From Longimicrobiales bacterium (GTDB taxonomy: Bacteria; Gemmatimonadota; Gemmatimonadetes; Longimicrobiales; Gaopeijiaceae): DNA of 64,000 bases. Below, piece after piece: positions 17,329 to 53,483 of the stretch (position 1 is its first letter; each line of letters begins with the position of its first letter). The translations under genes and the position numbers were made by a program. The notes beneath the pieces were generated by a model, which ran no database searches, was not told the DNA's origin, and was given only the letters and a program-made list of their open reading frames with translations. The stretch spans positions 288,001 through 352,000 of the forward strand of contig CBDDCX010000008.1 in NCBI GenBank assembly GCA_965226375.1. The letters run 5' to 3'.

Positions 17329-17499
17329 CGGTCAGTTTGCCCGTCGGGTCGTTTTTCGGGTGCACAAGCTTTTCTGAAGATCAGCATTGGCGGAGAGCGG
17401 TCGGAGATGCCCCCCGCCAAGAATCCTCCTATACTGATCGTCCCGTCGCTCTGGAGTCGAAGTGCTTCCGGTCTCAGGCCGAACCAAGCGAGGTGCACC

Positions 17500-26695: not shown

Positions 26696-27762
26696 ATGGG
26701 GTATTGCCTTAAGTCCACCGCCCACTACATGTTGTGGTCATGGCGGTTCCGGCTTCTCAGCTCCGTGGCGGCGTGGACTATCCCCGTACGCGGCTGGAGT
26801 TGGACGAGTTCTTCCCCGACGATGCGGCATGCCTGGAGTACGTGGAGGGTCTGCGCTGGCCGGAAGGGTTTGTGTGCGTGGGCTGTGGCGGGTTGGGAGA
26901 GGTCTGGCGAGCATCGCGGGGGCGTCTCGTCTGCCCACACTGTCGAAGGCAGACCTCGGTGCTGGCGGGAACCGTGTTCCACCGCACGCGCTCGCCCCTG
27001 CGTCTGTGGTTTCTCGCTGCCTGGGAGCTCACGAGCCAGAAATACGGAGCCAATGCTCTCGGGCTCCAGCGCGTGCTCGGACTGGGAAGCTACAAGACAG
27101 CGTGGGTCTGGCTCCACAAGCTCCGCCGGGCCATGGTCCGACCGGATCGCGACCAGCTGAGCGGCGTTGTGCAAGTGGACGAGAGCTATGTCGGGGGCGT
27201 GGAGGCTGGAGTGCGGGGCCGCGAGACGATCAAGAAGGCCATCGTCGCGATCGCCGCCGAGGTCGACGGACGCAAGATCGGGAGAATACGGCTGCGTTGG
27301 GTGCCCGACCTCTCCGCTCCGGTTCTGCGAGGCTTCGTCAAGGATAGCATCGCACCGGCAAGCACGGTGCATACCGACGGATGGCCAAGCTATCAGGGAC
27401 TCGCCAAACTGGGCTTTCGCCACACGGTCACGAACCTCTCGACCTCCGGCGATCCCGCTCACGTGCTCATGTCGGCCGTACATCGGGTGGCGTCTCTCCT
27501 CAAGCGCTGGGTCCTCGGAACCCTCCAAGGAGGGATCGCCCGCGAACACCTCCCCTACTATCTGGACGAGTTCACCTTTCGCTTCAACCGACGCACATCC
27601 CGGGCTCGCGGCCTGTTGTTCTACCGCTTGCTTGAGCAGGCTGTTCAGTGTGCTCCCACGCCAGCTTCGGCCCTTTACCTCGGCACCGGACGTGGGAAAC
27701 GGCCCGCAGAGCCCCGGTAACCACTATATCTTGGGGTCGGTGGACTTAAGGGAATACCCCCT
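26696..27762 (+). mobile_element. IS1595-family insertion sequence, 1067 bp
   Basis: 25-bp TIRs ATGGGGTATTGCCTTAAGTCCACCG / AGGGGGTATTCCCTTAAGTCCACCG (2 mismatches); 8-bp TSD TACCGTGA at 26688-26695 and 27763-27770. Confidence 0.95.
26734..27720 (+). CDS. IS1595-family (ISXO2-like) DDE transposase with zinc ribbon
   Basis: RWPEGFVCxxC...CxxC; VQVDESY, HTDG and YLDEFTFRFNRR motifs. Confidence 0.95.
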   Translation: MVMAVPASQLRGGVDYPRTRLELDEFFPDDAACLEYVEGLRWPEGFVCVGCGGLGEVWRASRGRLVCPHCRRQTSVLAGTVFHRTRSPLRLWFLAAWELTSQKYGANALGLQRVLGLGSYKTAWVWLHKLRRAMVRPDRDQLSGVVQVDESYVGGVEAGVRGRETIKKAIVAIAAEVDGRKIGRIRLRWVPDLSAPVLRGFVKDSIAPASTVHTDGWPSYQGLAKLGFRHTVTNLSTSGDPAHVLMSAVHRVASLLKRWVLGTLQGGIAREHLPYYLDEFTFRFNRRTSRARGLLFYRLLEQAVQCAPTPASALYLGTGRGKRPAEPR

Positions 27763-28903: not shown

Positions 28904-30280
28904 TTACTGAGCGTCGCGCAACACGTCCAGCATGATGTCGATGCCTGCGTTGAGGTACGACCGAGGAATCGTGAGGGACGGCACCACGCGAATGAGGTTT
29001 CCGTACCGTCCGCACGGCACCATGATCACACCTCGCTGAAGCAGCGCGTCCACGATGGCTCCGGTTCGGTCACGGCTGATCGGTTCGCCGGTCTCCCGGT
29101 TCGCCACGAGTTCGACACCGATCATCAGACCACTACCACGAACGTCACCGATGATCTCCAGATCCTCGGCTGCAGCCCTCAACCGCTGCATGGCCTCTTC
29201 CCCGACCTCGGCCGCTCGCTGAACGAGACCGTCACGCTCGATAATGCCCAGATTGGTCAGGCACACCTCGGCCGAGAGGGCGTTGGCCGCGAAGGACTGC
29301 GGCTGTGAATGGTCGTCGAGCTGCGCGGCCAGGTCCCGGCGCATCAGGACACCGGCCATGGGGAGGTCTCCACCCATGCCCTTGCCGAAGGTCAACATGT
29401 CCGGCTCCACCCCGGCGTGCTCGACCGACCACATCTTCCCGGTACGGCCGGCGCCGGCCTGCACCTCGTCGACGATGAACAATGCACCGTGCTTTTCGCA
29501 GGCGGCCTTGACCGTCTGGACGAACTCCGGGTCCGGAAGCAGGTAGCCCCCCTCACCCTGGAGCGGCTCAATGATCACCGCTGCCACGTCGTCGGCTGCG
29601 GTGTACGGCGTGTTCAGCACGTGGTCGACGTAGCCTGCGCAGGCGATGTCGCAACTGCTGCGTTCCAGACCGAACGGACAGCGATAGCAGTACTGATATG
29701 GCACGTGGATCACGCCCGCCATGAAGGGCCCATAACCGGCCCGGAACTTATCGCCGGTCGTCAGCGAGTTCGCGGCGTGCCAGGTCCCGTGATACCCCCC
29801 GTGGAAGGCGACGATCTGATGCCTTCCCGTGACCCTCTTCGCGAACTTGACAGCGGTCTCCACCGCGCCACTGCCGCTCAGGGTGAAGTAGGCGACGCAG
29901 TTGTCGCGAAGTCCGGGTGGTGCGACCGCAACAAGCTTCTTGGCGAGTTCCCCGCGCTTGGTGTTGCTGATGTCGGATGCGTGCATGAGCACCTTGGACT
30001 GGCGCTCGATCGCCGCGACGACATCGGGATGGACCCGTCCGACGTTGTTGACCGCGACCCCTGCCGACATGTCGATGTAGAGGTTTCCGTCCGGATCGAG
30101 CACCGTCACACCCTTGCCGGTGTCGAAGATCAGCGGGAACCGCCCACCTCCACGGGTCATGGACTCGTAGTTCGGCACCTGCTCGAGCAAGGCTGCGCTC
30201 TTCGGTCCCGGAAGCACATCCGACACGATCTTCGGAGCGCCGGGGAACGACAGTGCCTCGAGCTCCTGTTCTGTGATCAT
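28904..30280 (-). CDS. Class III PLP aminotransferase (GabT-like), copy 2
   Basis: Near-identical paralog of 24662..26038 with scattered substitutions. Confidence 0.92.
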   Translation of the reverse strand: MITEQELEALSFPGAPKIVSDVLPGPKSAALLEQVPNYESMTRGGGRFPLIFDTGKGVTVLDPDGNLYIDMSAGVAVNNVGRVHPDVVAAIERQSKVLMHASDISNTKRGELAKKLVAVAPPGLRDNCVAYFTLSGSGAVETAVKFAKRVTGRHQIVAFHGGYHGTWHAANSLTTGDKFRAGYGPFMAGVIHVPYQYCYRCPFGLERSSCDIACAGYVDHVLNTPYTAADDVAAVIIEPLQGEGGYLLPDPEFVQTVKAACEKHGALFIVDEVQAGAGRTGKMWSVEHAGVEPDMLTFGKGMGGDLPMAGVLMRRDLAAQLDDHSQPQSFAANALSAEVCLTNLGIIERDGLVQRAAEVGEEAMQRLRAAAEDLEIIGDVRGSGLMIGVELVANRETGEPISRDRTGAIVDALLQRGVIMVPCGRYGNLIRVVPSLTIPRSYLNAGIDIMLDVLRDAQ

Positions 30281-30319
30281 ATGTTCTCCTCCTCGTTATG
30301 CGTTGTCCACATCGGGTCC

Positions 30320-31168
30320 TCAGAGCTCCATGAAGTCTTCGCCCAGGACGACCTCTCCGTCGAAATCCCGCTTCGCCTCCTGCGTCCAGACGTCGGCACT
30401 CGGCCCTCCGTCGGTGGGGATCATGTGGGTCAGCACCAGCATGCCCACATCAGCCGTTCTCGCGATCCGGCCGACGTCCGCCGTACGCGTGTGCGAGTTG
30501 ACGAGGTGTGAACGAAGTCCCTCGGGGGCTCCGACGGCCTCGACCAACGAGTCGATGCTCGGTAGGTGCATCACCTCATGCACGAGAATGTCGGCGCCTT
30601 GGGCCAGGGCAATCAGGTCGTCGTTCGGCGTAGTGTCCCCGGAGAAGACGTACGAGCGGTCGGGTGCGTCGATCCGGTACGCGTGAGCGAGCATCGGAGG
30701 ATGGTCGACGAGGCAGGTCGAGATGCGCACGTTCTCGTCCTCGTAGACGGGACCGGCGCCCGAAAGTTCGTGCACGTCGATCAATGCTTCCGGGCCAGGC
30801 CGACCCTCGTCGGCCATCCTCGTTTGCACGTCGACTTCTGCGAAGTCGAGATACGACTCGATCATCTTCCGAATCGGCTTCGGTCCGACGACCCGAACCG
30901 GGGAGGTCAGGCCCGTTCCCCAAGCGAGGATCAAGACCGCGCCGACGTCAGCCACATGGTCGGAGTGGTGGTGGGTCACGGCGACGACACGGAGGCGATT
31001 GATGTCCAGGCCGGCACGCACCAACTGGCGGCCCACTCCGTTTCCCGCATCGACCAGGTAGATGTCGTCGTTCACCACCACGGCGTGCGCCGGTGCCGAC
31101 CGCGCAACCTTGGGCGTCGGCCCCCCGGCCGTTCCGAGCAGCACCAGCCGACTGGCTCCCTCGCTCAC
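30320..31168 (-). CDS. MBL-fold hydrolase (RNase Z/AtsA arylsulfatase-like)
   Basis: LLGTAGGP, VDAG, THHHSDH, FSGDT, VHE, SHT and LTH motifs; GTGA overlap with the upstream gene. Confidence 0.88.
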   Translation of the reverse strand: MSEGASRLVLLGTAGGPTPKVARSAPAHAVVVNDDIYLVDAGNGVGRQLVRAGLDINRLRVVAVTHHHSDHVADVGAVLILAWGTGLTSPVRVVGPKPIRKMIESYLDFAEVDVQTRMADEGRPGPEALIDVHELSGAGPVYEDENVRISTCLVDHPPMLAHAYRIDAPDRSYVFSGDTTPNDDLIALAQGADILVHEVMHLPSIDSLVEAVGAPEGLRSHLVNSHTRTADVGRIARTADVGMLVLTHMIPTDGGPSADVWTQEAKRDFDGEVVLGEDFMEL

Positions 31169-32619
31169 GAAGCCGCGCGGTCGATGATGCTCCACAGTCG
31201 GTCGACGTCCTCGGCGGTCGTCCACGTCGAACCGACCGACACCCGGATGAAGCGCTCCGAGCCGAGGCTCGAACCGATCAGAAAGACGTTGGGCACCGAG
31301 TTGATCGCATCCAGTAACGCGTCGGTGGCCTCGTTCCCCGAACGGTGACGGAAGCACACCACACCGAAGGAGACCGGAGTAGTCAGGGCGAGGTGGTCGT
31401 GCTGTTCGATCCTCCCGGCAACCGTCACTGCGAGACGGATGTATTCCCGGAGGTGGTGCCGGAGCCCCTCGGCGCCATAGCTGCGCAGCACCCACCACAG
31501 CTTGAGCGCCCGGAACCGCCGGCCCAGGGGCACCTGCCAGTCGCGGTAGTCGATCACCCGGCCGGACTCCGAAGCCTGATTCCTCAGATACGGAGGCGTG
31601 ATGGACATGGTGTCGATCAGCGCTGCACGGTCGGCGACCCAGAGAACGTTGCAGTCGAAGTTCGTGAACATCCACTTGTGGGGATTGACCGTGTAGCTGT
31701 CTGCCGACTCGGCGCCGTCCTGGAGGTGCCGAAACTCCGGACAGACCATGACGGATCCGGCATAGGCCGCGTCGACGTGGTGCCACATGCCTTCGTCGCT
31801 CGCAATCTGCGACATCGCGGCGATGGGATCGACCGCCGCAGTCCCTGTCGTACCGAGGACGCTCGTGACGATGAGCGGCGTCAGCCCCGCGTCTCGATCG
31901 GCGGCGATCGCCGCTCGGAGCGGCACCGGGTCGAGACTCCAGTTCTCATCGACGTCGATCGCCCGGAAGTGCTCGATGCCGGCGACGCGTGCCCCCTTCT
32001 CGACGGACGAATGTGCCTGGCCCGAGGCGTAGGCGACGAACTCGGGCCGGGGGGTCTGCCCAGCCATCGCTCGTTCGCGGGCAAGCACATGGACCAGGTG
32101 AGTCGAGTCCGAAGCACTCGTTTGGATGACCCCACCACCCGGACCGGTCCGGTTCCGCCATGCGGCGGGGAGGCCGAGCAGATCCACCAGCCAGTCGGTC
32201 ACCCGACTCTCGATCTCGGTCGCAGCCGGACTCGTCGACCAGAGCATCGCCTGCACCCCAAGGCCCGCGCTCACGAGCTCGCCCAGGATGGAGGGTCCCG
32301 ACGTGGTTGAGGGGCAGTACGCGAACCACCCCGGTGACTGCCAGTGGCTGACACCGGGCATCACGACCTCGTCGAGATCGCGAATCAGGTCCTCGAACGG
32401 CTCGGGCTTCTCCGGGGCCGTCTCCGGGATGGCCGCGGCGATGTCTCCCGGCTCGACGTCCGGCATCACCTGGCGTTCGCCGACCGTCTCCAGGTAACGA
32501 GCCAACCAGTCGACCAGGGCATGGCCATGACGCCGAAACTCGTCGGGGTCCATATGATAGGACCGCTCCGATCCGACGACGTCGTCGGGGCTATCCCGAT
32601 CGGATGAGAGATCAGTCAT
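31165..32619 (-). CDS. Aromatic-L-amino-acid decarboxylase (group II PLP)
   Basis: PGVSHWQSP, SPAATEIE, HVDAAYAG, NPHKW and PLGRRFRALKLW motifs. Confidence 0.92.
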   Translation of the reverse strand: MTDLSSDRDSPDDVVGSERSYHMDPDEFRRHGHALVDWLARYLETVGERQVMPDVEPGDIAAAIPETAPEKPEPFEDLIRDLDEVVMPGVSHWQSPGWFAYCPSTTSGPSILGELVSAGLGVQAMLWSTSPAATEIESRVTDWLVDLLGLPAAWRNRTGPGGGVIQTSASDSTHLVHVLARERAMAGQTPRPEFVAYASGQAHSSVEKGARVAGIEHFRAIDVDENWSLDPVPLRAAIAADRDAGLTPLIVTSVLGTTGTAAVDPIAAMSQIASDEGMWHHVDAAYAGSVMVCPEFRHLQDGAESADSYTVNPHKWMFTNFDCNVLWVADRAALIDTMSITPPYLRNQASESGRVIDYRDWQVPLGRRFRALKLWWVLRSYGAEGLRHHLREYIRLAVTVAGRIEQHDHLALTTPVSFGVVCFRHRSGNEATDALLDAINSVPNVFLIGSSLGSERFIRVSVGSTWTTAEDVDRLWSIIDRAAS

Positions 32620-34942
32620 CGAGGCGCTCCGCCAGCCGGCTGTGTTCCTCGTCGACACGACTTCGAGACGATTTCAGCATCTCACTCAACCGCTCACCCG
32701 GCATGATCGTGACGGAGCGGAGGGCCCCCGAGTAGGCGAACGTCCCCCGCCGCGAACGCAGCTCCCGCGAGACGGGCGATCTCCGGTCGATCCCGACATC
32801 GATCCCCTGGAAGGGGGTGACGCCGGAGAACACGTCGAATTGTGCCGGAACCTCCCGCACCTCGTCCTCGACTGTGATACGCACGGAACACACCCCTTCG
32901 GGTCGAGCGACGAACGCGGTATCGATCCGATCGAGGTGCGGACGGAGGGCACCCATGTCGAAGTCACGCGTCCGACCGCCGTAGTTGTGACAGAAATGCA
33001 GATGGCCATCCTCGACGTAAAGGAGGTAGCCGCCACCCTGATCACCCTGTGCGATCAGAACACCTTCTTCGGTGGGCTGGTATCCGTCCCCGAAATCGAC
33101 TCGCACGTCGAAGGACCGCATCTGGACCAGGATACGGGAGCGATACCTGTCCAGGGTCTGGGCCCCGAACAGGATCTCTACCGGCCGGGATGCTCGACGC
33201 CACGCAGGCGAAAGGGGGTCGTCCAGGCCGCTGTCGTCCGTCAGAGGAAACACCTGCTTCTCCCACGCCGTGTCCTCCCACTCGGCGGCCATCGCGACGG
33301 TGTGCTCGACCTCGACGGAGGACAGGTCCACGATCTGGGTCGGATCCGTGGTGAGGTCGTACAACTCCCAGTCCTCATCCGAGTAGCCGCCCACACCGTC
33401 GTACCGCGCTACGATCTCCCAACCGTCCACGTACATGCCGCGATTGCCGTCCATCTCGTAGTACTGCTTGCGGTGTCGGCTGGTGGCTTCGGGATCATGG
33501 ATGGAGCCGACGAAGCTGAACCCGTCGAGTCCGTCGAGTTGGGGGTCCTCCCCCTTCGCCAGAGCCACCATCGTGGGGAGCACGTCGGTCACGTGCAGGT
33601 ACTGGCGACGCAAGGCGCCCGCGTCGGTAATGCCCGCTGGCCACGATAAGATTGCGGGGACGGTATGCCCTCCCGCATGGGTCTGACGCTTGAACAGCCG
33701 GAATGGTGTGTTGCTCAGCCGGGCCCACCCCCAGTTGTAGGCCGGCTTCGCATAAGCCGAGCCGATCAGATCGATGACGGAGTGGGCGAACTCGGGTGAG
33801 ACCAGGCGCTTGTGCTCGTCGGTCTGCGGGAGCCCGCCGATCCTGGGAGCGCTGAAGTAGTACGGTGATCCCGCTGGGCCTCCTTCCTGGCTCGCCCCGT
33901 TGTCGGAGTGGAACAGGAATACTGTGTTGTCCCACTGGCCCGTCTCTATGAGATGGTCGCGGAGTCGCCCGACACTCCGGTCTATGCTGCTCACCATCGC
34001 GGCATAGACCTCCATGTACCGTGCGTAGACCGACTGTTGCTCGTCGGTGAGAGAATCCCACTCCGGCAGGTCGTAACCCTCTTCCACGCCGGAGGGCAAT
34101 CGAGTCTCCGGAGCAACGATCCCCATCAGCTTCTGTCGCTCAAAACGATCGAGACGCGCCCGGTCCCAACCCATCGCGTAGCGCCCGCGGTGGGGCTCGA
34201 TGTCGGACTCCTTGGCCTCCAAGGGGAAGTGGACGGCCGCGTGCGCGAAGTAGAGGAAGAACGGGCGTGACTGCTCGCCGAGGTGGCGATCACGCAGCAT
34301 CCGCAACGCCTGGTCCGTGAGGTCGTCCGTCAGGTAGTACCCATCGGGGAACTCGTCGACGTGCCTTACCGAGTTGCCGTCGACGAGCTGGTGGGGGTCG
34401 TGTTGACTGGAGAAGCCGTCGAGGATCCCATAGAACTCGTCGAATCCGTTCTGGAGCGGCCAGTTCCGTCGCGGAGCATCGACCGACATGTGGGCTTCCG
34501 GCAAAAGATGCCATTTGCCGACCATGAGCGTCGAGTAGCCCTCGTCACGGAGTCGCTCCGCGATCGTCGGGGCAACCCCCAACTCCATTCTGTAGTTCGG
34601 GTAGCCGGGATCGAAGTGGGTAACGTCGGCATAGCCGGCTAGGTGGTGATCGACGCCCGTCATGAGCGAGGCGCGGGTGGTCGTGCACTTCGGCGTAGAG
34701 TGGAAGTTCGTGAATCGGAGACCCTGGGCGGCGATGGCGTCGAGGTTGGGGGTGGGGATCTCCCCACCGAAGCAACCGACGTCCGAATAGCCCAGGTCGT
34801 CGACCAGCATCAAGATGATGTTCGGGCTTCCCGGCCTCGCCGAGTTCTCTGCAGGCCATGACGGCGTGGACTCGGAAAATGTCCGCCCGATCTCACCGTC
34901 GAAGCCTTCGTAGGCCCGTCTCCGCCCCGGCGACTCGGTCAT
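32612..34942 (-). CDS. Arylsulfatase (formylglycine-dependent) with C-terminal extension
   Basis: PNIILMLVDDLG, CTTTRASLMTG, GKWHL, SDNG and NTPFRLFK motifs; no signal peptide. Confidence 0.9.
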   Translation of the reverse strand: MTESPGRRRAYEGFDGEIGRTFSESTPSWPAENSARPGSPNIILMLVDDLGYSDVGCFGGEIPTPNLDAIAAQGLRFTNFHSTPKCTTTRASLMTGVDHHLAGYADVTHFDPGYPNYRMELGVAPTIAERLRDEGYSTLMVGKWHLLPEAHMSVDAPRRNWPLQNGFDEFYGILDGFSSQHDPHQLVDGNSVRHVDEFPDGYYLTDDLTDQALRMLRDRHLGEQSRPFFLYFAHAAVHFPLEAKESDIEPHRGRYAMGWDRARLDRFERQKLMGIVAPETRLPSGVEEGYDLPEWDSLTDEQQSVYARYMEVYAAMVSSIDRSVGRLRDHLIETGQWDNTVFLFHSDNGASQEGGPAGSPYYFSAPRIGGLPQTDEHKRLVSPEFAHSVIDLIGSAYAKPAYNWGWARLSNTPFRLFKRQTHAGGHTVPAILSWPAGITDAGALRRQYLHVTDVLPTMVALAKGEDPQLDGLDGFSFVGSIHDPEATSRHRKQYYEMDGNRGMYVDGWEIVARYDGVGGYSDEDWELYDLTTDPTQIVDLSSVEVEHTVAMAAEWEDTAWEKQVFPLTDDSGLDDPLSPAWRRASRPVEILFGAQTLDRYRSRILVQMRSFDVRVDFGDGYQPTEEGVLIAQGDQGGGYLLYVEDGHLHFCHNYGGRTRDFDMGALRPHLDRIDTAFVARPEGVCSVRITVEDEVREVPAQFDVFSGVTPFQGIDVGIDRRSPVSRELRSRRGTFAYSGALRSVTIMPGERLSEMLKSSRSRVDEEHSRLAERLDD

Positions 34943-37721: not shown

Positions 37722-38546
37722 ATGGGCCCTGTGACCACGAACACACCAGCCGAGCCAGTACCACACCCGCTCGACCGTTTCGCCGTCGAGGGGAAGAGCG
37801 CCGTCATCACGGGCGCCTCGGGAGCACTGGGGGCCGGCATCGCCGAGACCCTCGGGGCGATGGGCGCGAAGCTCACTCTCGCCTCTGGCAGCGCCGAGCC
37901 GCTTGCCGACCTCGCCCGACGGATCACACAGGCCGGTGGCGAGGCACAGACCATCAACCGTCGACCCGATGGCATCGAGGACGCCGACGCCATCGTCCAG
38001 CGAAGCGTAGAGGCATTCGGATCCGTCGACCTCCTCGTCGTCGCATCCGGGTTCAACCAGGCCGGCTTCATCCACGAGCAGGATCTAGCGGACTGGGAAC
38101 AGGTCATGGATGCCAACGTCCGCGGGGCGTGGCTGATGGCCCAGGCGTTCGGCAAGCACGCCCTTGAACAGGGAACCGGCGGCAAAGTCCTGCTCATCTC
38201 ATCGGTGCGCGGTCGTCACGGCAACTACTCCGGCTACACGGCCTACTGCACCTCGAAGGGCGCCACGGACGCTCTGACGCGTTCGCTGGCGACGGAGTGG
38301 GCGCAGTACGGCATCACGGTCAACGCGATCGCACCGACGGTGTTCCGGTCGGGACTGACCGCGTGGATGTTCGGCGATAGCGAGCTCGGTCGCGCCACGA
38401 GGGAACGGAGCCTGGCGCGCATCCCGCTGCGCCGGCTCGGTGAAGTCGACGACCTCCTCGGTATGGCCATCTACCTGCTCTCTCCCGCCTCGGATTTCTG
38501 CACCGGTCAGGTCATGTACGTCGACGGCGGCTACACCGCGGGATGA
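37722..38546 (+). CDS. SDR family oxidoreductase (candidate phloroglucinol-reductase-like)
   Basis: TGASGALG, SS and YCTSK (YxxxK) motifs; VNAIAP; VDGG. Confidence 0.9.
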   Translation: MGPVTTNTPAEPVPHPLDRFAVEGKSAVITGASGALGAGIAETLGAMGAKLTLASGSAEPLADLARRITQAGGEAQTINRRPDGIEDADAIVQRSVEAFGSVDLLVVASGFNQAGFIHEQDLADWEQVMDANVRGAWLMAQAFGKHALEQGTGGKVLLISSVRGRHGNYSGYTAYCTSKGATDALTRSLATEWAQYGITVNAIAPTVFRSGLTAWMFGDSELGRATRERSLARIPLRRLGEVDDLLGMAIYLLSPASDFCTGQVMYVDGGYTAG

Positions 38547-39484
38547 TGAGCGGCCTGCCGAACGTCGCCGTCCTGGGCGCGGGACGCATGGGGGCGGCCA
38601 TCGCCTTCGTCTTCGCCGGAAGCGACCACGACGTTCGGTTGTACGAACCCGATCCCTCGGCGCGCGATCGGGCGAGTCACCGCCTCCGAGAGGTGGCGAC
38701 GACGCTCCATCGTCCGAGCGCGTCAGACATTCCCATCTTGGATGACCTGAACGAAGTCGTCCGAGAAGCCGATCTGATCATCGAGGCCGCCCCGGAGGAC
38801 ACCGCCATCAAGCGGGCCCTTTTCGACGAACTCGGTGGGGCGGTGGGGCCGGATGCCCTGGTCGGCACGAACACCTCATCGCTGCCTATTGAGAGTTTCG
38901 CTCAGGGCTTCCCGAACCCCGGACGACTGGTCTACGCCCACTTCTGGAACCCTCCGTACGCCATCCCTCTCGTCGAGGTCGCACCGGGGCCGGACACCGA
39001 CGAACCGGCAATGGACACCGTCGCCGGCTGGCTGGAAGGTGCCGGGATGGCGCCGGTGTTGCTTCAACGGGCGGTCCCGGGACTCATCGGAAACCGGCTC
39101 CAGCACGCCCTGAAGCGTGAGGCCATCGCGCTCGTTGCGGACGGCGTCTGCGACGCCGCCACCATCGACGACGTCGTCAAGCTCGGGTTCGGAGCCCGGA
39201 TGGCGGTGCTCGGCCCGATGGAGCAGTCGGACCTCGTCGGGCTCAACCTCACCCTCGCGATCCATGAGAGCCTCATGCCGACGCTGGACCGGACGGACGG
39301 CGCGCACCCCTACCTCATGGAGAAGGTCCGCAGGGGCGAGCTCGGCATGGATGCCGGCGTCGGCTTCCGACCTTGGACCCCGTCATCGGCGAAAGCGGTC
39401 CGCGACCGGCTCGATCGTTGGAACACCCGGACATCGCCAGCCGAAGGTGACCCCGAACCGCTGGACTCAGGGAGAACCAAATGA
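38543..39484 (+). CDS. 3-hydroxyacyl-CoA dehydrogenase family protein
   Basis: GAGRMG, EAAPE, NTSS, HFWNPP and GNRLQHAL motifs. Confidence 0.9.
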   Translation: MMSGLPNVAVLGAGRMGAAIAFVFAGSDHDVRLYEPDPSARDRASHRLREVATTLHRPSASDIPILDDLNEVVREADLIIEAAPEDTAIKRALFDELGGAVGPDALVGTNTSSLPIESFAQGFPNPGRLVYAHFWNPPYAIPLVEVAPGPDTDEPAMDTVAGWLEGAGMAPVLLQRAVPGLIGNRLQHALKREAIALVADGVCDAATIDDVVKLGFGARMAVLGPMEQSDLVGLNLTLAIHESLMPTLDRTDGAHPYLMEKVRRGELGMDAGVGFRPWTPSSAKAVRDRLDRWNTRTSPAEGDPEPLDSGRTK

Positions 39485-40329
39485 ATCCCAGCGTCACGCG
39501 CCACCGACCCACACCTGCGCCGAGTCCGGTAGTCGATCCCCAGACCGGCCTCGAACTGTACGAACTGAGTCACCCGTGGGGCCACGGGGCACCGGCCTAC
39601 CCCGGCTACCCGGACACGCGGATCCATCGTGTTGTCACGCACGCTCGGCACGGCGTCCTGACCCAGCGCATCCAGACGGTCATGCACACCGGAACCCACG
39701 TGAACGCTCCCGCCCATCTCGTCCAGCGAGCCGCGGGTATTGGCGCGCTCCCCCTTGGGTTGTTCTTCGGCCAGGGTGTCGTCCTCGATGTCTCGAAAGA
39801 GCAGTGGGAACTCGTCACCGCAGCCGACCTCGAGTCGGCAACACCTGCGGTAGAACCGGGCGACATCGTACTCATCGTCACCGGATGGCACCGGCGCTAT
39901 TCCGACAGCCAGGACTACTTCGGTCATGCGCCGGGACTCTCCCCGGGGGCGGCCATGTGGCTGCGTGACGCCGGAGCGAAGCTCGTGGGTGTCGATACAC
40001 CGTATGTCGACCACCCGCTGGCGACGCAGCTCGCCGATCACCGCGGCGGCCCCCTCGCGCCGTACCTCGTCCCGCGGTACGAATCGGAAACGGGCAGAGC
40101 GGCATCCGAAGACTTCCCGGAGTTGCACCCCGCCCACCGGACGCTTCTCGACGCCGACATCCCCACCATCGAGAACGTGGGGGGCGACGTCGACCTCCTC
40201 CTCGGCAAGCGCGTCACGATTCAGTCGTTCCCTTGGCGGTGGCCCGAAGGTGACGCCTGCCCAGTACGACTGGTCGCCCTACGGGACGACCGAGGTGACT
40301 ACCGAATCGAGACGGGGGAAGCCAGGTGA
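39481..40329 (+). CDS. Cyclase (kynurenine formamidase-like) family protein A, variant motif
   Basis: HTGTHVNAPAH (Asp to Asn in HxGTHxDxPxH), VGVD, IEN. Confidence 0.88.
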   Translation: MNPSVTRHRPTPAPSPVVDPQTGLELYELSHPWGHGAPAYPGYPDTRIHRVVTHARHGVLTQRIQTVMHTGTHVNAPAHLVQRAAGIGALPLGLFFGQGVVLDVSKEQWELVTAADLESATPAVEPGDIVLIVTGWHRRYSDSQDYFGHAPGLSPGAAMWLRDAGAKLVGVDTPYVDHPLATQLADHRGGPLAPYLVPRYESETGRAASEDFPELHPAHRTLLDADIPTIENVGGDVDLLLGKRVTIQSFPWRWPEGDACPVRLVALRDDRGDYRIETGEAR

Positions 40330-41147
40330 GCGGCCTGGAGTTCTACGACCTGTCCCATCCGTGGGGTCACGGAATGCCGGAGTGGCCTTCCTCTCCCGGC
40401 ATCCGGGTCAACCGGGTGCAATTCCACGCTAAGGATGGGCAGTGCGTCCACGAAATGGATGCGCACATGCATCGCGGGACACACATGGACGCACCGGTGC
40501 ACGTCACGGCCGACTGGCCGACCCTCGCGGGCTACGAGACGTGGCGCTTCTTCGGCACGGGGGTCGCCGTCTCGATTCCGAAGGGCCGGTGGGAAGTGAT
40601 CACTCCCGACGACCTCGAAGCAGCCGAGCCGCGCATCCAGCCCCACGACATCGTGATCATCAACACGGGGTCGCATCGGCTGGTCGGCGACAACGACGAC
40701 TACTTCAACTACTCGCCCGGCCTCTACGACGAAGCCGCCCGCTGGCTCGTCGAGCGCCAGGTGAAGCTCGTAGGCGTCGACGTCCAGGCCCTGGACCATC
40801 CGCTCGGCACCAAACTCGTCGAGCATGGACCGGGACCGTCCCACCCTCATCTCATCGAGGAGTACCGACGAGAGTTCGGGCACCCCCCCGCCGAGGACTT
40901 CCCCGACTGGGAGCCTGCCCACAAGATCCTCATGGGGAACGGGATCCCCGGCATCGAGAACGTCGGGGGAGACCTCGATGCGGTCACGGGCAAGCGATGC
41001 ACATTCGCCGCCTTCCCGTGGCGATGGACCGAGGGCGAAGGATCCGGAGTCCGTGTGGTCGCCATCCTGGATCGCGAGGGGAGCTACCGGATCAGCGAAG
41101 ACGAAGCCGCTGGTGAGAAGCTGGCATCCGCGGTGACCGGTGAGTGA
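40326..41147 (+). CDS. Cyclase (kynurenine formamidase-like) family protein B, canonical motif
   Basis: HRGTHMDAPVH, VGVD, IEN; GTGA overlap with A. Confidence 0.9.
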   Translation: MSGLEFYDLSHPWGHGMPEWPSSPGIRVNRVQFHAKDGQCVHEMDAHMHRGTHMDAPVHVTADWPTLAGYETWRFFGTGVAVSIPKGRWEVITPDDLEAAEPRIQPHDIVIINTGSHRLVGDNDDYFNYSPGLYDEAARWLVERQVKLVGVDVQALDHPLGTKLVEHGPGPSHPHLIEEYRREFGHPPAEDFPDWEPAHKILMGNGIPGIENVGGDLDAVTGKRCTFAAFPWRWTEGEGSGVRVVAILDREGSYRISEDEAAGEKLASAVTGE

Positions 41148-41982
41148 GGGAATAGAGACCTTGGTCGACCGCAGCCAGGGCAAAGCTCCCGGGACGAAGC
41201 GGGTCCAGTCCGTGATCCGCACGGTCGAGATCCTGCGTGCGCTCGGCGACGCCGGACAAGACCTTACGTTGGCTGACCTCGCGGAGCGCACCGGTCTGCC
41301 ACGCTCGACGGTTCACCGAATCGTCCAGACCCTCCAGAGTGCGCACTTCGTCGCAAAGGGGGCGGGCCCAGGGGGACTCCGACTCGGACCGGAGTTCGGC
41401 CGTCTTGCCTCGAACTCCCGGCAGGCGCTCACTCCCGCAATGCGCCCCTTCCTCGAGAGGCTCGCAAGCGAGATCTCAGAGAGCACGAGCCTCACCGTTC
41501 TCGAAGGGCTCAATGTGCGGTTCCTCGACCAGGCCATCGTCGGTCAAGGGCTGCGCGCCGTCACACTCGTCGGCACGGCCTTCCCAGCACACTGCACGGC
41601 GAACGGAAAGATCCTGCTGGCGGCTCTGCCGAGGGCGGTTCTTCGCGCAAGGCTTCCCGAACGGCTGGAATCCCGCACTTACCACACCATCACGGATCCC
41701 GAACGCCTCATGGACGAACTGGACCGTGTCGGGACCGACGGCGTGGCGTTCGATCGTGAAGAACACGGGATCGGTATCAGTGCGATCGCTGCGCTCGTCG
41801 TCGACGATGCGAACAACCACGCCGCGATCAGCGCCGCCATGCCGACCGCAAACTTCGAAGGCCGCGAGGAGTACCTCACCGAGATCGTGCGTAGGACCGC
41901 GCACGATGCCAGTGTAGCGCTCGGCTGGAGCGGCGCGAATGGGAAGTCGCCAAGTCCCAACCCCAACGCGACCACCGACTGA
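41140..41982 (+). CDS. IclR family transcriptional regulator
   Basis: VQSVIRTVEIL...GLPRSTVHRIVQTL HTH; HCTANGKILLA; DREEH. Confidence 0.93.
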   Translation: MSEGIETLVDRSQGKAPGTKRVQSVIRTVEILRALGDAGQDLTLADLAERTGLPRSTVHRIVQTLQSAHFVAKGAGPGGLRLGPEFGRLASNSRQALTPAMRPFLERLASEISESTSLTVLEGLNVRFLDQAIVGQGLRAVTLVGTAFPAHCTANGKILLAALPRAVLRARLPERLESRTYHTITDPERLMDELDRVGTDGVAFDREEHGIGISAIAALVVDDANNHAAISAAMPTANFEGREEYLTEIVRRTAHDASVALGWSGANGKSPSPNPNATTD

Positions 41983-41996
41983 TCGGAGAGAAGAAC

Positions 41997-42329
41997 ATGG
42001 AAGTCACCCGACTCGCGGACGCTCTCCCCTACGAGGCCCCGAAGCATCACGGCATCGCCGCTCTTCGACTCCACGGCAGAGAGCAGACCAACGCGGAGCG
42101 TGTGGTGGTGGGGCTGACGCACTTCCTTCCGGGTGGCGGCGCCGACGAGTCCTCGAGTGAGGCCGAGAGGGTCTACGTGGTGTTGGAGGGGCAGGTCACA
42201 GTGACCACGGAGGAGGGGCCCGTGGTGCTCGGCCCCCTGGACTCCTGCCTCATCCCTCCCGGAGAGACCCGATCCGTGCAGAATTCGACCAACCGACCCG
42301 CCTCGATGCTCGTGATCGTGGTCCCGTGA
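41997..42329 (+). CDS. Cupin domain protein
   Basis: PYEAPKHHG; ERVYVVLEG...GPLDSCLIPPGETRSVQN cupin motifs. Confidence 0.85.
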   Translation: MEVTRLADALPYEAPKHHGIAALRLHGREQTNAERVVVGLTHFLPGGGADESSSEAERVYVVLEGQVTVTTEEGPVVLGPLDSCLIPPGETRSVQNSTNRPASMLVIVVP

Positions 42330-42421
42330 TCGAGAGCCGCTGCCTCCCTCGTCGCATGATCGCTCTCACACGTCACGTGCATGCACTCGACTCAGACGCT
42401 TAGATAGAAGGAGATACGAGG

Positions 42422-43930
42422 ATGTCGACACAACACCAAGCGATGTCGGTTGCCACTGCGCCGACGGAGGTCCAGGAGTTCCTGCGAAGTACGCCGGCAC
42501 ACGTCGTCGGAGATACGAAGCGACCTTCCGGGTCAGGTGAGGAAATCGAAGTTGTCGACCCGTCCACCGGAGAGGTGATCTCACACATCGCTCGCGGGCG
42601 AGCCGAGGATGTCGACGCCGCAGTGCAGGCGGCGGACTCCGCACTGCGTTCGTCATCCTGGACGAACGCGAGCCCGGCAACCCGCGAGTCCCTCCTCCAC
42701 CGGCTCGCAACGGTCATCGATGAGAACGTCGAGACCCTTGCCCTTCTCGAGTCGCTGGACATCGGGATGCCGTTGCCGCTGTCTCACCACCTCGACATCG
42801 CAGGAGCCGCCGATGTCGTGCGCTACATGGCGGGATGGCCCACGAAGATCGCGGGGCGGACCCTGACCTTCGAGAGCCCCGGCGGCAACCGGGCGATGGG
42901 CCACACCCGCCTGGAGCCCGTCGGTGTCGTCGGAGGCATCATTCCGTGGAACGTGCCGTTCATGTTGGCGATCTGGAAGGTGGCGCCCGCCCTTGCCGCC
43001 GGATGCACCATCGTCCTGAAGCCAGCCGAAGCCGCGTCGCTCACGGCGTTGTTTCTGGGCGATCTGGTCCTCGAGGCCGGCTTCCCACCGGGGGTCGTGA
43101 ACATCGTCACCGGGACCGGGCCCGAAGCCGGTCAGCCGCTCATCGAGCACCCGCTGGTCAGCAAGATCTTCTTCACGGGCTCGACTACGACGGGGATCGC
43201 CGTCGGCCGAGCGGCCGCTTCCCACACCAAGCCCGTGTCCCTGGAGCTAGGCGGCAAATCGCCCACGATCATTTTCGCCGACGCCGACCTCGAGGCGGCG
43301 GCGGCCGGTGCAGCGGAGTCGATCTTCCTGAACTCGGGACAGATCTGCGTGGCTGGCTCCCGGCTTTACGTTCAGAAGAGTGCCTACGACGACGTCGTGA
43401 ACCGGGTCGCATCCCTCGCAGCGAAGCACGTCGTCGGCAGCGGTCTCGACCCGGCCACGACCCTCGGGCCGGTGATCAGTCGACGGCACAAGGAACGGGT
43501 CGACGGATACATCGACGCCGCGGAGAACGGCGGGGCCGAGCTCATCTCGAGTCACGTAGTTCCCGAGCAGGGTTTCTTCGTGGCTCCCACGATCGTCACC
43601 GGTGCCGAGCACGGAGCGGCGATAACCCAGGAGGAGGTCTTCGGTCCGGTGCTCTCGGTCTACCAGTTCGACGACGAAGCCGACGTCCTGAAGGCCGCGA
43701 ACGGAACCCCGTACGGACTCGCCGCCACCGTTTGGACATCGAGCATCGCCCACGCGGAGGCGATGATCGACGGACTGGAGTGCGGCAAGATCTCGGTGAA
43801 CTCGCCCGGCTTCCCTTACCCCGGACTGCCCGAGGGCGGCAAGAAGGCGTCGGGCTACGGAAGGGACCTGGGACCGGAGTCGGTGGACGGCTATCTCCAC
43901 TCGAAGTCCGTCATCTTCGAGCGGTCCTGA
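42422..43930 (+). CDS. Aldehyde dehydrogenase (phenylacetaldehyde-DH-like)
   Basis: PWNVP, FTGS, ELGGKSP, NSGQIC and EEVFGP motifs. Confidence 0.93.
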   Translation: MSTQHQAMSVATAPTEVQEFLRSTPAHVVGDTKRPSGSGEEIEVVDPSTGEVISHIARGRAEDVDAAVQAADSALRSSSWTNASPATRESLLHRLATVIDENVETLALLESLDIGMPLPLSHHLDIAGAADVVRYMAGWPTKIAGRTLTFESPGGNRAMGHTRLEPVGVVGGIIPWNVPFMLAIWKVAPALAAGCTIVLKPAEAASLTALFLGDLVLEAGFPPGVVNIVTGTGPEAGQPLIEHPLVSKIFFTGSTTTGIAVGRAAASHTKPVSLELGGKSPTIIFADADLEAAAAGAAESIFLNSGQICVAGSRLYVQKSAYDDVVNRVASLAAKHVVGSGLDPATTLGPVISRRHKERVDGYIDAAENGGAELISSHVVPEQGFFVAPTIVTGAEHGAAITQEEVFGPVLSVYQFDDEADVLKAANGTPYGLAATVWTSSIAHAEAMIDGLECGKISVNSPGFPYPGLPEGGKKASGYGRDLGPESVDGYLHSKSVIFERS

Positions 43931-48811: not shown

Positions 48812-49961
48812 GCCGTGGAGGCCTAGTCTAATGAGAACACGACCACCCTCCCGCTTCGGGCCGCACCGCCCGGGCCTCGTCCTGATCATCGCATGCTCGC
48901 TGCTGATGGCCTGCGGCACGTCCCACGTGCCGCGCGGACTCCTTGGTGAGCCCGCCCGGGGAAGCGCCCGGATACGTCTACTACACGCCCCTCACATCGT
49001 CGACCACCTATTTGATCGAGGCGGGCAGCGGCGCCGTCGTTCACACGTGGGAGAGCGAGTGCGCCCCCACCGCGTCCGTCTATCTGCTCGACAACGGCAA
49101 CCTGCTCCGGGGCGGAAAAATGCCGGAGGTCGAGGTATTCAGTGGCGGCGGACAGGGCGGCAGGCTCCAGGAGTTCGCATGGGATGGCGAAGTCGTCTGG
49201 GACTTCCGGTGCGCCACTGAGGAGTACCTTCTGCATCACGACACCGCGCTTCTTCCTAACGGCAACATCCTGGCGATTGCATGGGAAGAGAAGTCGCGCG
49301 AAGAGGCGGGGGAGATGGGGTATCGGCCGGAGATGACCCCCGAGAGTGGCGTCTGGCCTGACATGATCGTCGAGATCGAGCCCCAGGGCCGCACAGGCGG
49401 CCGGATCGTGTGGGAGTGGCACGCCTGGGACCACATGATCCAAGACTACGATGACAATGCGGGTAATTTCGCTGACCCGGCGGCCCACCCCGAGCTCGTC
49501 GACATCAATGCCGGTCGCCGGGTGCCAGGCAACGTCATGCAGGACGATATCGCACGGTATCGTGAGCTCGGATATGTGCCGGAAGGCGACGGTCACAACC
49601 CGTCGTCGGACCTCATGCATTCCAACGCGATCGCGTACAACGCAGAATTGGATCAGATCGTACTGAGCCCGCGCGTCTTCAGCGAGATCTGGGTCATCGA
49701 CCACAGCACCACCACGGCGGAGGCCCGTGGCAGCACGGGAGGTCGCTGGGGCCGCGGAGGTGACTTGCTCTACCGCTGGGGGAATCCGCAGGTGTACGGG
49801 CAAGGCACGGAAGCCGACCAGATCCTTTTCGGTCAGCACGATATCCGCTGGGTACCGGAGGGGATGCCGGGTGCCGGCAACTTCACGGTATTCAACAACG
49901 ACAACGTCACACCGGGCGGGACCTATTCCGCCGTCTTCGAGTTCGCGCCCCCTACCGACGC
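48812..49961. repeat. About 1.15-kb near-perfect inverted repeat of 23152..24300
   Basis: Alternative-frame ORFs are identical between copies (e.g. 23677..23877 = 49236..49436); the only difference seen is one extra T near 48943. Confidence 0.9.
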
Positions 49962-50328
49962 GTCGGGCGCGTACGTCCTGGGGGACGGAGAGGCGTTTGG
50001 TCCAGAAGAAGTGATCTGGAGCTACACTGCGCCCGACCGGCCTGACTTCTACGGCTCGTTCATCTCCGGGGCGCACCGGCTCGCGGGGGGCAACACCCTG
50101 ATCACCTCGGGGCCCCAGGGACGCTTCTTCGAAGTGACCACCGACGGGGAGATCGTCTGGGAGTTCTGGTCGCCGACGTCTGGCGATGTGGCTTCCCCCC
50201 CACGCGGCGCCGCCATCCGTGCCAACCCCTACGCCGTATTTAGGGCGACGTATGTTGCGGGCGACCATCCGGCCCTGAGAGGTCGGAATCTCGTTCCGCT
50301 GGATCCGCAGCCGAGGCTGATCCCGCCC
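48831..50328 (+). pseudogene. ASST family gene, copy 3: +1 frameshift near 48943, no stop codon, fused in frame to DUF885
   Basis: Signal peptide is in ORF 48618..49220 and the body in ORF 48943..51492; reads through ...PRLIPP into NVQSEPP... Confidence 0.85.
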
Positions 50329-53300
50329 AACGTACAATCCGAGCCGCCAGCCAACGTGGCTGACCCGACCGCGTCTCTGCACGCGCTCTGCGACGAGTTT
50401 TTCGAACGCGGACTTGAACTCAACCCAATGCGGGCGTCCTCAATTGGCGATTACCGCTTCAATGATCAGTACGCCAATTCGATCGGTCCAGAACATCGTA
50501 AAGCCAGCCACCAGCTCGATGAGACATTCCTCGCGCGCCTCCTAAATATCGATCGCAAGCAACTCTCACGTCAGGACAGATTGAGCTACGACTTGTTCCG
50601 GCTCCATCGTGAGCAGTCGCTCGAGAGCGAACAATTTCCCGGCCACCTGCAACCGATCAACCAGCGTTCCTCGGCCTTGAATTCATTTGTGCAACTCGGT
50701 AGCGGTACCAGCGTTCACCCCTTCAAGACGATTAAGGACTACGATGACTGGTTGTCACGAATTGATGGATTCGTCGTGTACGTTGACCAGGCGATCACCA
50801 ACATGCGGGAGGGCGTGCGACAGGGCGTGGTGCAACCGCGTATTCTGATGACCGAGTCTCTGAAGCAGATCGAGTCGCAGATTGTCGACTCGGCGGAAGA
50901 CAGTGGTTTCTGGGCGCCGATCGAAAATATGCCCATCGAATTCAGTCAGGAAGAACGGGGACGACTTACGGTGGCATTCAAAGATGCTATCGAGAATAAG
51001 GTTCTTCCAAGTTATCAACGGGTTGCCAATTTTATCGCAGACGAGTATCTGGCGGCGGCACGGGACACGGTTGGGCTGTATGCATTGCCTGACGGACAAG
51101 AATGGTACGCCTACAACGTCAAGCGTGTGACCACCACTGACCTGACGCCTGACGAGATCCATCAAATTGGCCTGGACGAAGTTGCGCGCATTCACAACGA
51201 AATGCGCGGTGTCATGACCGAAGTCGGGTTCGAGGGCGACCTCAAGGATTTCTTCGACTACGTAAATAGCGACGAGAAGTTCTATTACGATGAAGCCGAC
51301 GAATTGATTCAGGGCTATCGCGACATGTACGAACGGATTTCGGCATTGTCGATGAAACTGTTCGACGTTTTTCCCAAGAGTTTAGCGCCCCCGATTTCTC
51401 TGGACAGTAGATTGGCAAAGACAGCGGGTCCAGAGAGAAAGGGACGTGATGGCCCAGAAGCCGAGGGAGAACAAGGCGACCGCAGGTCGTGAGAAGGTAC
51501 CCGAGCGGTGGAGTGCCCAGCAGAAAACGGAGGTGGTGCTGCGCCTGCTACGGGGTGAGGACCTGGTGGAGGTCAGCCGCGAGGTACAGGTCTCACCGCC
51601 GGAGCTGGAGGAATGGCGGCGGGTGTTCCTGGAGACCGGTCAGCAGGGACTGAGACGCCGGGGCCGAGACCCTGGAGAACGGGAGCTGACCCGGACCCGG
51701 GCGAAGCTGGGAGAGTTGACGATGCGACTGGAGCTTGCGAGAGAACTCCTGGAAAAAAGGGGGTACGGGGACGAGCTGGAGAAGCTCTTGAAGCGCGGAC
51801 GCGGGTGAGTCCGGGGACAGGGCGGCTCTACCCTCTGACGATGATCTGCGAGGTCTGGCGGGTGGGGCGCTCGACGGTCTACGCGGCCCGAGATCGAGAA
51901 GAGAGCGACGGGCCGGCAGGGCTGAAGAAGCGCGGACCGAAGACGAAGCTGAGCGACGAGGAGTTGGTGGAGGAGATCCGACAGGTGCTGAAGGAGAGCG
52001 ACTTCCTGGGCGAAGGCCACCGGAAGGTCCGGGCCCGTCTGAGAGCCAAGGGGATCGGTGTGGGCAAGAACCGCGTGCTGCGGCTGATGCGGGAGAATGG
52101 GCTGCTGGCCCCCGTACGGCGCGGAAAGCACCCGCGTGGGGACCGGAGCCACAGCGGCCGGATCACGCGACGGATGTGCCGAACGAGCTGTGGGGTACGG
52201 ACGCGACGCGGTTCTACACGAAGGAGGATGGGTGGTGCTGGTTCTTCGTGGCGGTGGATCACTGCATCACAGACGTGGTGGGCTGGCACGTGGCGAAGAA
52301 GGGCGATCGGTGGGCAGCGCTCGAGCCGATCCGCCAGGGTGTACGAACCCACATGGACGGCTACGCGCCCAAGATCGCTCTGGGGCTCGGCCTACGGCAC
52401 GACTGGGGCCCTCAGTACACCGCCCATCAGTTCCAAGGAGAGCTGGCCTGGCTCGGGATCCGCTCGACGGCCTCGTACGTAGGAGAGCCGGAGTGCAACG
52501 GCGTCGCGGAACGCTTCATGCGGACGCTGAAGGAAGAGTGCCTGTACCTCCACGACTTCGAGAGCCTCGAGGAGGCCAGGCAGGAGATCGATGCGTTCAT
52601 CGAACGCTACAACCGCGGGTGGCTCCTGGAGCGGCACGGGTATCGGACCCCGGCCCAGGTCCGTCAGGAGCTCACCCTGAAGGCGGCATGATTAGGCCGC
52701 CGACTTGTCCAGGAAACCGGAACCGGTACAAGAGCAGCCTCGAAGTGCGTCGAGTCGAACCGTTTCGCGAAGCGTCAGCTGGTGGCGCCTCCTATCGTAC
52801 TGGCACGCCGGACGGTAGCCGAGCCGGCGTTTTTTACGCCAACGCCTATGACATCAAGGCACGTCCAATCTGGAATATGGAGTCGTTATTCCTGCACGAG
52901 GCGATTCCCGGCCATCATTTCCAGCGCTCCCTCCAGGTCGAAAATACGGACCTGCCAAGCTTCCGACGATTTGGCGGCAATTCGGCGTTCACCGAAGGTT
53001 GGGGTCTTTATGCCGAGATGCTCGGCAAGGAAATTGGCGTCTATACCGATCCGTATCAGTACTTTGGCCTCTTGAACGGCGAGCTCTGGCGCGCTATTCG
53101 CCTGGTCGTTGATACCGGCCTGCACACAAAAGGATGGACGCGACAGGACGTGCTCGACTACATGTACGCGAATTCGGCGGTAAAAGAATCGCGGGCCGTT
53201 CCTGAAGTCGGGCGTATCATCGCCAGCCCGGGTCAGGTCCTGGCATACAAGATTGGTCAGCTCAAGATCCGTGAACTGCGCGATGACGCGGAGGAGCGCC

Positions 53301-53413: not shown

Positions 53414-53483
53414 AACGATTTCATGGCACGACTAAGGGGTCAACCCGAGTGTGCTGCAACTATTCAACGAATTGGAGGACAAA

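Follow-up and report, generated by a model that had tools for sequence, protein, structure and literature searches.

A twin-cyclase sister type of the phloroglucinol pathway in a Longimicrobiales genome, with a predicted heterodimeric ring-opening hydrolase

Phloroglucinol is a hub of anaerobic polyphenol breakdown, and the enzymes that degrade it were identified only in 2023. According to the available sections of that report, the Clostridium scatologenes pathway consists of phloroglucinol reductase (PGR), a short-chain dehydrogenase/reductase (SDR); dihydrophloroglucinol cyclohydrolase (DPGC), a cyclase-family enzyme that depends on Mn and has Trp20 and Tyr22 as substrate residues; TfD, a 3HCDH-family enzyme without the coenzyme A (CoA)-binding residues Lys56 and Asn221; and triacetate acetoacetate-lyase (TAL), a BKACE-family enzyme using acetyl-CoA (Zhou et al. 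2023, PMC10470551). Clusters with a single cyclase are exemplified by Novosphingobium pentaromativorans US6-1 pLA3 (locus L103) and M. tuberculosis Rv1714-Rv1716 (PMC5894108), and their function, in the published work available, is a prediction. Here a related operon with two cyclases is described from a 64,000-nucleotide stretch of a Longimicrobiales bacterium (the window; GenBank assembly GCA_965226375.1, contig CBDDCX010000008.1, positions 288,001 to 352,000, forward strand). It encodes an SDR, a 3HCDH-family dehydrogenase, the cyclase-family proteins Cyc1 and Cyc2, an IclR regulator and a small cupin (Table 1). The preliminary description had read these genes as a reductive ring-cleavage operon, and its gene set was borne out: six plus-strand open reading frames (ORFs) span 37680/37722-42329, their Pfam domains in gene order are adh_short_C2, 3HCDH_N plus 3HCDH, Cyclase (twice), IclR and Cupin_2, and the first five genes overlap their neighbours by 4-8 bases.

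The SDR had its top PDB match in 5G4K/5G4L (E = 1.1e-50; next match, 2.5e-39), and 5G4L is named as PGR in the supplement of PMC10470551. A Clostridium-type set of at least 118 metagenome loci was picked by the motif of C. scatologenes DPGC (CsDPGC). Among the matches listed, mean identity of the window proteins to this set was 39.7% for the SDR (54 SDRs), 38.5% for Cyc2 (n = 45) and 36.5% for the dehydrogenase (n = 51), and for both cyclases identity is 48-50% to DPGC homologues of the single type and about 22% to KynB and isatin hydrolase. The PDB match and these identities bear out the earlier proposal of homology to PGR (SDR), DPGC (cyclases) and TfD (dehydrogenase). The operon shares with C. 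scatologenes a PGR-subfamily SDR, a cyclase (Cyc2) with Trp20 and the metal motif, a regulator within the cluster, and a TfD-like dehydrogenase with catalytic Ser, His and Asn and without the CoA-binding Asn; it very probably works like the phloroglucinol pathway. It departs from the C. scatologenes-type cluster at three of its membership features, namely TAL, Tyr22 and the NADPH motif. It differs further in having two cyclases, one with an Asp-to-Asn change and the pair often fused in the twin type, in a new Arg50, in a Trp-to-Lys change in the TfD homologue, and in its association with an aldehyde dehydrogenase and a fumarylacetoacetase (FahA).

Twin loci were collected as the best 79 of at least 541 confirmed GTDB relatives, picked by Cyc2. 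Cyc1 lies directly 5′ of Cyc2 in 79/79, and within 5.5 kb were found an SDR (70/79), the dehydrogenase (64/79) and the cupin (18/79). Because the cyclase pair recurs in every locus, mostly with SDR and dehydrogenase, the arrangement is not due to chance. Single-cyclase clusters share the SDR, dehydrogenase, cyclase, the same cupin (28/28 loci) and usually IclR, with about 50% identity for SDR and cyclase; their own features are one WPYF-type cyclase, an intact metal Asp and a nearby BKACE gene (22/28). In a 401-genome sample of one alphaproteobacterial order, 25 genomes matched, 17 with the single type only, 2 with the twin type only and 6 with both, one of these six being the chosen centre genome of the sample. 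In an SDR tree (a quick version, with long-branch warnings) the main twin group is a separate branch whose sister is the bulk of the single-type SDRs, and seven more distant SDRs near twin loci sit outside it. In an unrooted cyclase tree with long outgroups, Cyc2 and the single-type cyclases each form one side of a branch, and Cyc1 does not. The twin-cyclase cluster is thus a distinct, widespread sister type of the phloroglucinol pathway. Its cultured carriers include Pelagibacterium lacus XYN52 and Rhizobium sp. ACO-34A.

Two twin loci (L033 and L082) are unremarked hits in the cluster search of the supplement of PMC10470551, which lists 12,225 clusters; their identity to C. scatologenes is 33-36% (DPGC), 42-44% (PGR) and 38-46% (TfD), and TAL is without a hit. 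The scores of proteobacterial clusters with one cyclase are similar there. The available main text of that paper holds no discussion of two-DPGC clusters, and no paper on twin-cyclase clusters was found in the literature searched, whose coverage excluded subscription papers such as Conradt 2016. Homology searches count twin-cyclase clusters as phloroglucinol clusters, and if the ring that the twin clusters attack is in fact another, substituted one, annotations of polyphenol turnover mix two pathways. The earlier suggestion that the setting was new carries little weight, since facultative aerobes, marine alpha- and gammaproteobacteria and mycobacteria are among the carriers of the cluster already on record, so that an aerobic diderm host is not novel (PMC10470551, available sections).

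A division of labour between the two cyclases is apparent in their metal sites. The metal-ligand Asp is replaced by Asn (Asn75) in 84/84 Cyc1 domains and kept in Cyc2 (85/85), the single type (28/28) and the Clostridium type (45/45), and the DPGC metal motif HxxTHxDxPxH is accordingly broken in Cyc1 and intact in Cyc2. His49, His53, Asp55, His59, His199, Glu211 and Trp20 of Cyc2 are kept in 85/85. Among the columns conserved in single-type cyclases, only Cyc2 retains Trp20, Asp55, Gln154, Glu196 and Gly209, and only Cyc1 retains the hairpin Arg50, with the hairpin Val59 present in 95% of Cyc1 and 36% of Cyc2 domains. Window Cyc1 has Tyr40 and Gly42 at the DPGC substrate positions Trp20 and Tyr22. 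Isatin hydrolase and KynB (PF04199) share the fold and metal motif with the operon cyclases, and in their dimers the hairpin is swapped, so that the residues 10 and 8 before the first His line the pocket of the partner (PMC6117287, PMC4243253, available sections). At these two positions the Clostridium type has Val and Thr; Cyc1 is alike and Cyc2 is not.

The pair also behaves as a unit. In-frame Cyc1-Cyc2 fusions were found in 30/91 pairs, at no fewer than three separate places on the cyclase tree, and the pair is duplicated as such at L036, L057 and L069, each of which holds two complete pairs with diverged partners. A Cyc1-Cyc2 complex model scored 0.96 (best control, 0.01; partner predicted local distance difference test [pLDDT], 96), with runs agreeing in at least 95% of contacts and the Cyc1 hairpin touching Cyc2 His59; the mark used for this score was reached by 116/157 solved complexes and 2/215 mismatches. 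A single-chain model of Cyc2 was mediocre (pLDDT 70), served for the fold search only, and returned the KynB/isatin-hydrolase fold. Cyc1 and Cyc2 are likely to form a heterodimer in which the metal site would come from Cyc2 and the swapped hairpin from Cyc1. Isatin hydrolase and KynB differ in being homodimers that have two equal sites and hydrolyse C-N bonds. In the literature searched, no cyclase-family heterodimer with one altered site was found.

Residue changes at or near presumed substrate positions run through three consecutive enzymes. The DPGC Tyr22, present in 28/28 single-type and 44/45 Clostridium-type cyclases, is Ser or Gly in Cyc2 (Ser in the window), and the residue after the first metal His is Arg50 in 85/85 Cyc2, a residue not among the common ones at this position in either canonical set. 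In the dehydrogenase, Ser112, His133 and Asn184 are kept and the CoA-binding Asn221 is replaced by Gly217, as in a TfD. Seven residues past the catalytic Asn, Lys191 stands in 66/66 twin dehydrogenases, where Trp stands in 51/51 of the Clostridium type and 93% of the single type; Asn228 is replaced by Gln in the twin type. The metagenome homologues stand in here for the CsTfD and CsDPGC sequences themselves; no CsTfD peptide over position 191 and no CsDPGC peptide over the first metal histidines is present in the available part of the mass-spectrometry lists of PMC10470551. The SDR keeps Tyr189 and Lys193 and has a twin-specific Arg243. Its Gly70 takes the place of the Arg that 93% of Clostridium-type enzymes have in the PGR NADPH motif TR(S/N), an Arg that is also missing from single-type proteobacterial SDRs. 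Since the presumed substrate-facing residues differ from those of the canonical enzymes, plain phloroglucinol becomes a less likely substrate. A smaller residue and new positive charges in three consecutive enzymes, together with a diacid hydrolase, would fit a ring bearing an anionic group at C2, and the three swaps offer a direct handle on the substrate question.

The terminal step also appears to differ. The cupin had previously been assigned as TAL, an assignment that fails because TAL is a BKACE enzyme using acetyl-CoA (PMC10470551, available sections). The cupin scored 108.6 bits against NF050094, under the cut-off of 175, and lacks the usual metal-binding histidines. BKACE (PF05853) was not found in the host genome, which is 90% complete. 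Among loci with full flanks (at least 8 kb on each side), BKACE was near 2/46 of the twin type compared with 21/25 of the single type, and Clostridium-type loci no shorter than 9 kb had it in 30/40 cases; of the two twin cases, L033 is the real exception, that of L049 belonging to a separate single-type cluster. A FahA gene adjoins 7/87 twin loci and none of the single (0/28) or Clostridium-type (0/40) loci, and HmgA (homogentisate dioxygenase) was unmatched in 5/6 GTDB genomes with an adjacent FahA. Window FahA scored 514.1 bits against TIGR01266 (cut-off, 375.3), and its top PDB matches are fumarylacetoacetases; like the enzyme of the homogentisate pathway, it would release acetoacetate from a 3,5-dioxo diacid. 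It was not found in two congeners. HmgA was not found in the host genome, so the FahA substrate is likely to come from elsewhere. The acetoacetate-CoA ligase gene directly 5′ of it, at the position given in the preliminary description, was verified (TIGR01217, 858.9 bits; cut-off, 520.9), and a homologue of the ligase comes after BKACE in the single-type locus L113.

The reading that best accommodates these observations, with about an even chance of being right, is a sister-type phloroglucinol pathway for a C2-acidic phloroglucinol (2,4,6-trihydroxyphenylacetate or 2,4,6-trihydroxybenzoate) with a heterodimeric cyclohydrolase and a hydrolytic last step. Its more general part, that the substrate is a substituted, anionic ring rather than plain phloroglucinol, is somewhat more probable. 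The aldehyde dehydrogenase would oxidise an aldehyde to either aryl acid; the SDR would reduce the keto tautomer of the acid to the dihydro compound; the Cyc1-Cyc2 dimer, with the metal site from Cyc2 and the swapped hairpin from Cyc1, would open the 1,3-diketone by metal-dependent retro-Claisen hydrolysis; the dehydrogenase would turn the 3-hydroxy-5-oxo diacid into a 3,5-dioxo diacid; and fumarylacetoacetase, replacing TAL, would yield acetoacetate and succinate or malonate, the acetoacetate being activated by the acetoacetate-CoA ligase. The phenylacetate would lead to 3,5-dioxooctanedioate, that is, succinylacetoacetate (a name given in a reference title), and the benzoate to malonate. Cleavage of succinylacetoacetate by FahA is presumed here, and nothing usable was found in the literature on FahA cleaving triacetate or succinylacetoacetate. 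At L082, genes for malonyl-CoA decarboxylase and malonyl-CoA synthase follow directly after the cupin. Of the earlier claim that ring opening proceeds without O2 or CoA, the first half stands, as reductive dearomatisation followed by hydrolytic C-C cleavage is likely; the second does not hold for the known pathway, because TAL uses acetyl-CoA. An enzyme set that uses NAD(P)H to dearomatise and open a carboxylated arene would, if real, be a useful biocatalyst.

Several observations weigh against this pathway. A 2-carboxy-1,3-dione decarboxylates easily, which weakens the benzoate option. Malonyl-CoA decarboxylase was not found in the host genome, and malonate genes, found at only 1/79 twin loci, were rejected as a general twin feature. 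Window FahA lies 15 kb upstream of the operon, adjacent FahA is confined to the 7/87 loci mentioned, and FahA was unmatched in 12/50 twin-selected genomes and in 7/7 further twin genomes; other FAH-family genes lie near several twin loci of genomes without FahA. BKACE occurs elsewhere in 45/50 twin genomes and could complete the pathway, and at L033 it is directly 3′ of the cupin. That Cyc2 Arg50 and dehydrogenase Lys191 face the substrate is deduced from their positions, and the basic SDR residue Arg179 is matched by Lys or Arg in Clostridium-type PGR and does not discriminate. The twin type being one clade, the residue swaps and the loss of BKACE are not independent tests. A passing complex model shows fold likeness rather than binding, because solved homodimers of the cyclase fold exist. 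In Cyc1, His69, His73, His79, His219 and Glu231 are kept at 96-100% and Asn75 is invariant, which is unexpected for a dead site. Finally, homologues of pyrogallol transhydroxylase near 6/79 twin loci point to phloroglucinol or tetrahydroxybenzene. These transhydroxylase-like molybdoenzymes, at L050, L053, L032, L060, L067 and L071, fall into three sequence subtypes (L050, 955 bits to 4V4C).

Plain phloroglucinol is the alternative that fares best, although it is unlikely. Under it, the Cyc1 site or FahA would hydrolyse triacetate to acetoacetate and acetate in a CoA-free pathway isofunctional with that of Clostridium. A duplicated DPGC could cleave triacetate, which like dihydrophloroglucinol is a 1,3-diketone; BKACE is lacking at loci with Cyc1; and the invariant Asn75 and other, retained ligands of Cyc1, the near-equal match of twin and single proteobacterial clusters to the C. 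scatologenes enzymes in the available supplement search, and the transhydroxylase homologues all agree with it. Action of FahA on triacetate is likewise our assumption and was not found in the literature. Set against this, the canonical enzymes, with no more than about 36% (DPGC) to 47% (TfD) identity to each other, invariably keep Tyr22 and the TfD Trp191, and both residues are changed here; six genomes carry both the single and the twin type; and Cyc1 is without Trp20, Gln154, Glu196 and one metal Asp.

A distinctly less probable substrate is a 2-oxy phloroglucinol, either 1,2,3,5-tetrahydroxybenzene or a sulfate ester, giving glycolate and acetoacetate. Tetrahydroxybenzene-type compounds of algal origin are known, sulfatases lie near L010, L059, L084, L085, L139 and in the window, a sulfate would suit the new basic residues, GlcD-like and glyoxylate-reductase-like neighbours occur, all under cut-off, and the six loci with transhydroxylase homologues are again compatible; however, no transhydroxylase was found in the host genome, and those neighbours are weak matches, partly shared by kin. 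Resorcinol, offered earlier as a 1,3-dihydroxy option, is unlikely, because it needs a ferredoxin-dependent reductase (PMC10470551, available sections) and would yield no 3-hydroxy acid for the dehydrogenase. Least probable of all is an unrelated substrate (a hydroxylated pyridine or pyrimidine, a vitamin B6 intermediate, formylkynurenine or a sugar acid), for although the top PDB match of the dehydrogenase is FHMPC dehydrogenase (4OM8), the JGI label of the cyclases is kynurenine formamidase and the best NCBIfam model of the SDR is gluconate 5-dehydrogenase, the models for KynB arylformamidase (TIGR03035, 65.2 and 48.2 bits; cut-off, 223), FHMPC dehydrogenase of the vitamin B6 pathway (NF042925, 195.7 bits; cut-off, 500) and gluconate 5-dehydrogenase (NF006070, 208 bits; cut-off, 279) all fell far under cut-off, the cyclases are far closer to single-type DPGC homologues than to KynB or isatin hydrolase, and the SDR groups with those of single-type clusters.

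Operon DNA was 79-92% identical in one Vicinamibacterales genome and three proteobacterial genomes, similar DNA is present in seawater and marine sediment runs, and Cyc2 was not found in 60 relatives of the host; these three findings argue that the operon is a mobile marine island. Ribosomal protein L16 of the host shares a 90% cluster with a protein named from Gemmatimonadota, which makes that phylum likely for the host; RecA gave no placement. Taken together with the C2-acidic reading, the signs of mobility allow a wider picture that is put forward tentatively, at somewhat less than an even chance: O2-free and CoA-free fission of carboxylated phloroglucinols (flavonoid A-ring or marine phenolic fragments) by a half-of-the-sites heterodimeric C-C hydrolase that arose by DPGC duplication and was repeatedly re-fused, with succinylacetoacetate or another 3,5-dioxo diacid being handed on to a fumarylacetoacetase co-opted from tyrosine catabolism, the whole spread by a mobile island among marine Gemmatimonadota, Acidobacteriota and Gammaproteobacteria.

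In the Vicinamibacterales genome G061 (L008:9150-11700) an operon of 90-95% identity lies between transposases, with a clean absence of the dehydrogenase and cupin genes; BKACE, FahA and HmgA had no match in G061. Two marine sediment runs labelled as RNA yielded contigs over all 30 bins; contigs cannot indicate transcription. A natural shorter version of the operon occurs in L009-L011 and in two marine sediment runs, whose contigs join across IclR and cupin in the same way (window 41096-42404). About 24 alphaproteobacterial loci (L048 and some 23 relatives), essentially one lineage and mostly with a fused cyclase gene, have a 4-hydroxybenzoate 3-monooxygenase gene just downstream (over the TIGR02360 cut-off in L048) and often a LigXa-like Rieske oxygenase. 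The UbiD neighbour in L072, L075 and L077 had no close solved relative. On a Haloarcula ordinaria plasmid (L108), a 33% DPGC-like cyclase has amidohydrolase and 2-oxoacid dehydrogenase genes as neighbours and lacks the SDR and dehydrogenase partners.

Table 1. Coordinates of the operon and of other genes in the window
Feature	Coordinates	Strand	Remarks
SDR, PGR subfamily; predicted NAD(P)H ring reductase	37722-38546	+	possible starts 37680, 37722, 37731
3HCDH-family, TfD-like; predicted CoA-independent 3-hydroxy-acid dehydrogenase	38543-39484	+	
Cyc1, DPGC paralogue, Asp75-to-Asn; predicted partner subunit giving swapped hairpin	39481-40329	+	
Cyc2, DPGC paralogue, intact metal site; predicted catalytic subunit	40326-41147	+	
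IclR regulator	41140-41982	+	Pfam
Small cupin without canonical metal histidines; predicted accessory	41997-42329	+	
Aldehyde dehydrogenase, phenylacetaldehyde-dehydrogenase-like; likely aryl-acid maker	42422-43930	+	
Acetoacetate-CoA ligase, directly 5′ of FahA; candidate acetoacetate consumer	19290-21272	+	TIGR01217 over cut-off
Fumarylacetoacetase, FahA type; candidate final C-C hydrolase	21336-22604	+	TIGR01266 over cut-off
Class III aminotransferase, metallo-beta-lactamase-fold hydrolase, pyridoxal phosphate (PLP) decarboxylase, sulfatase; possible feeder steps	28904-34942	-	Pfam

The same-strand aldehyde dehydrogenase gene extends the cluster one gene past the end given in the preliminary description. 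In each of L008-L011, the four closest GTDB loci, its orthologue (86-93% identity) comes immediately after the cluster, and its best model is StyD, phenylacetaldehyde dehydrogenase (535 bits, under the cut-off of 850). Decarboxylase and sulfatase DNA of the block of possible feeder genes is 80-86% identical in genomes G063 and G064, where the IclR orthologue adjoins sulfatase, decarboxylase and aminotransferase genes. An Rfam scan of the window gave no match, and a promoter scan gave none for the operon and one sigma-70-like site on the minus strand, facing ABC genes. Elsewhere in the window, the gene at 17407-18819 has no Pfam match and several copies of 63-78% DNA identity in the congener G001, and an IS1595-family transposase (26734-27720) lies between two blocks of class III aminotransferase and arylsulfotransferase genes. 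A module at 44.0-48.6 kb was set aside as a part of the operon, being far from it in G061; it holds genes for an MhpA-like flavin adenine dinucleotide (FAD) monooxygenase and for PanE-like, VOC and AA_synth proteins, around a minus-strand FAH-family gene (about 47935-47094) that is in pieces and apparently frameshifted at two places. At 48943-55006 the start of a DUF885 gene shares its frame with an arylsulfotransferase-like domain; the DUF885 gene is split by a pair of near-identical HTH_21 (IS3-like) ORFs (51613 and 53872), and the G+C fraction (GC) falls there to about 0.60.

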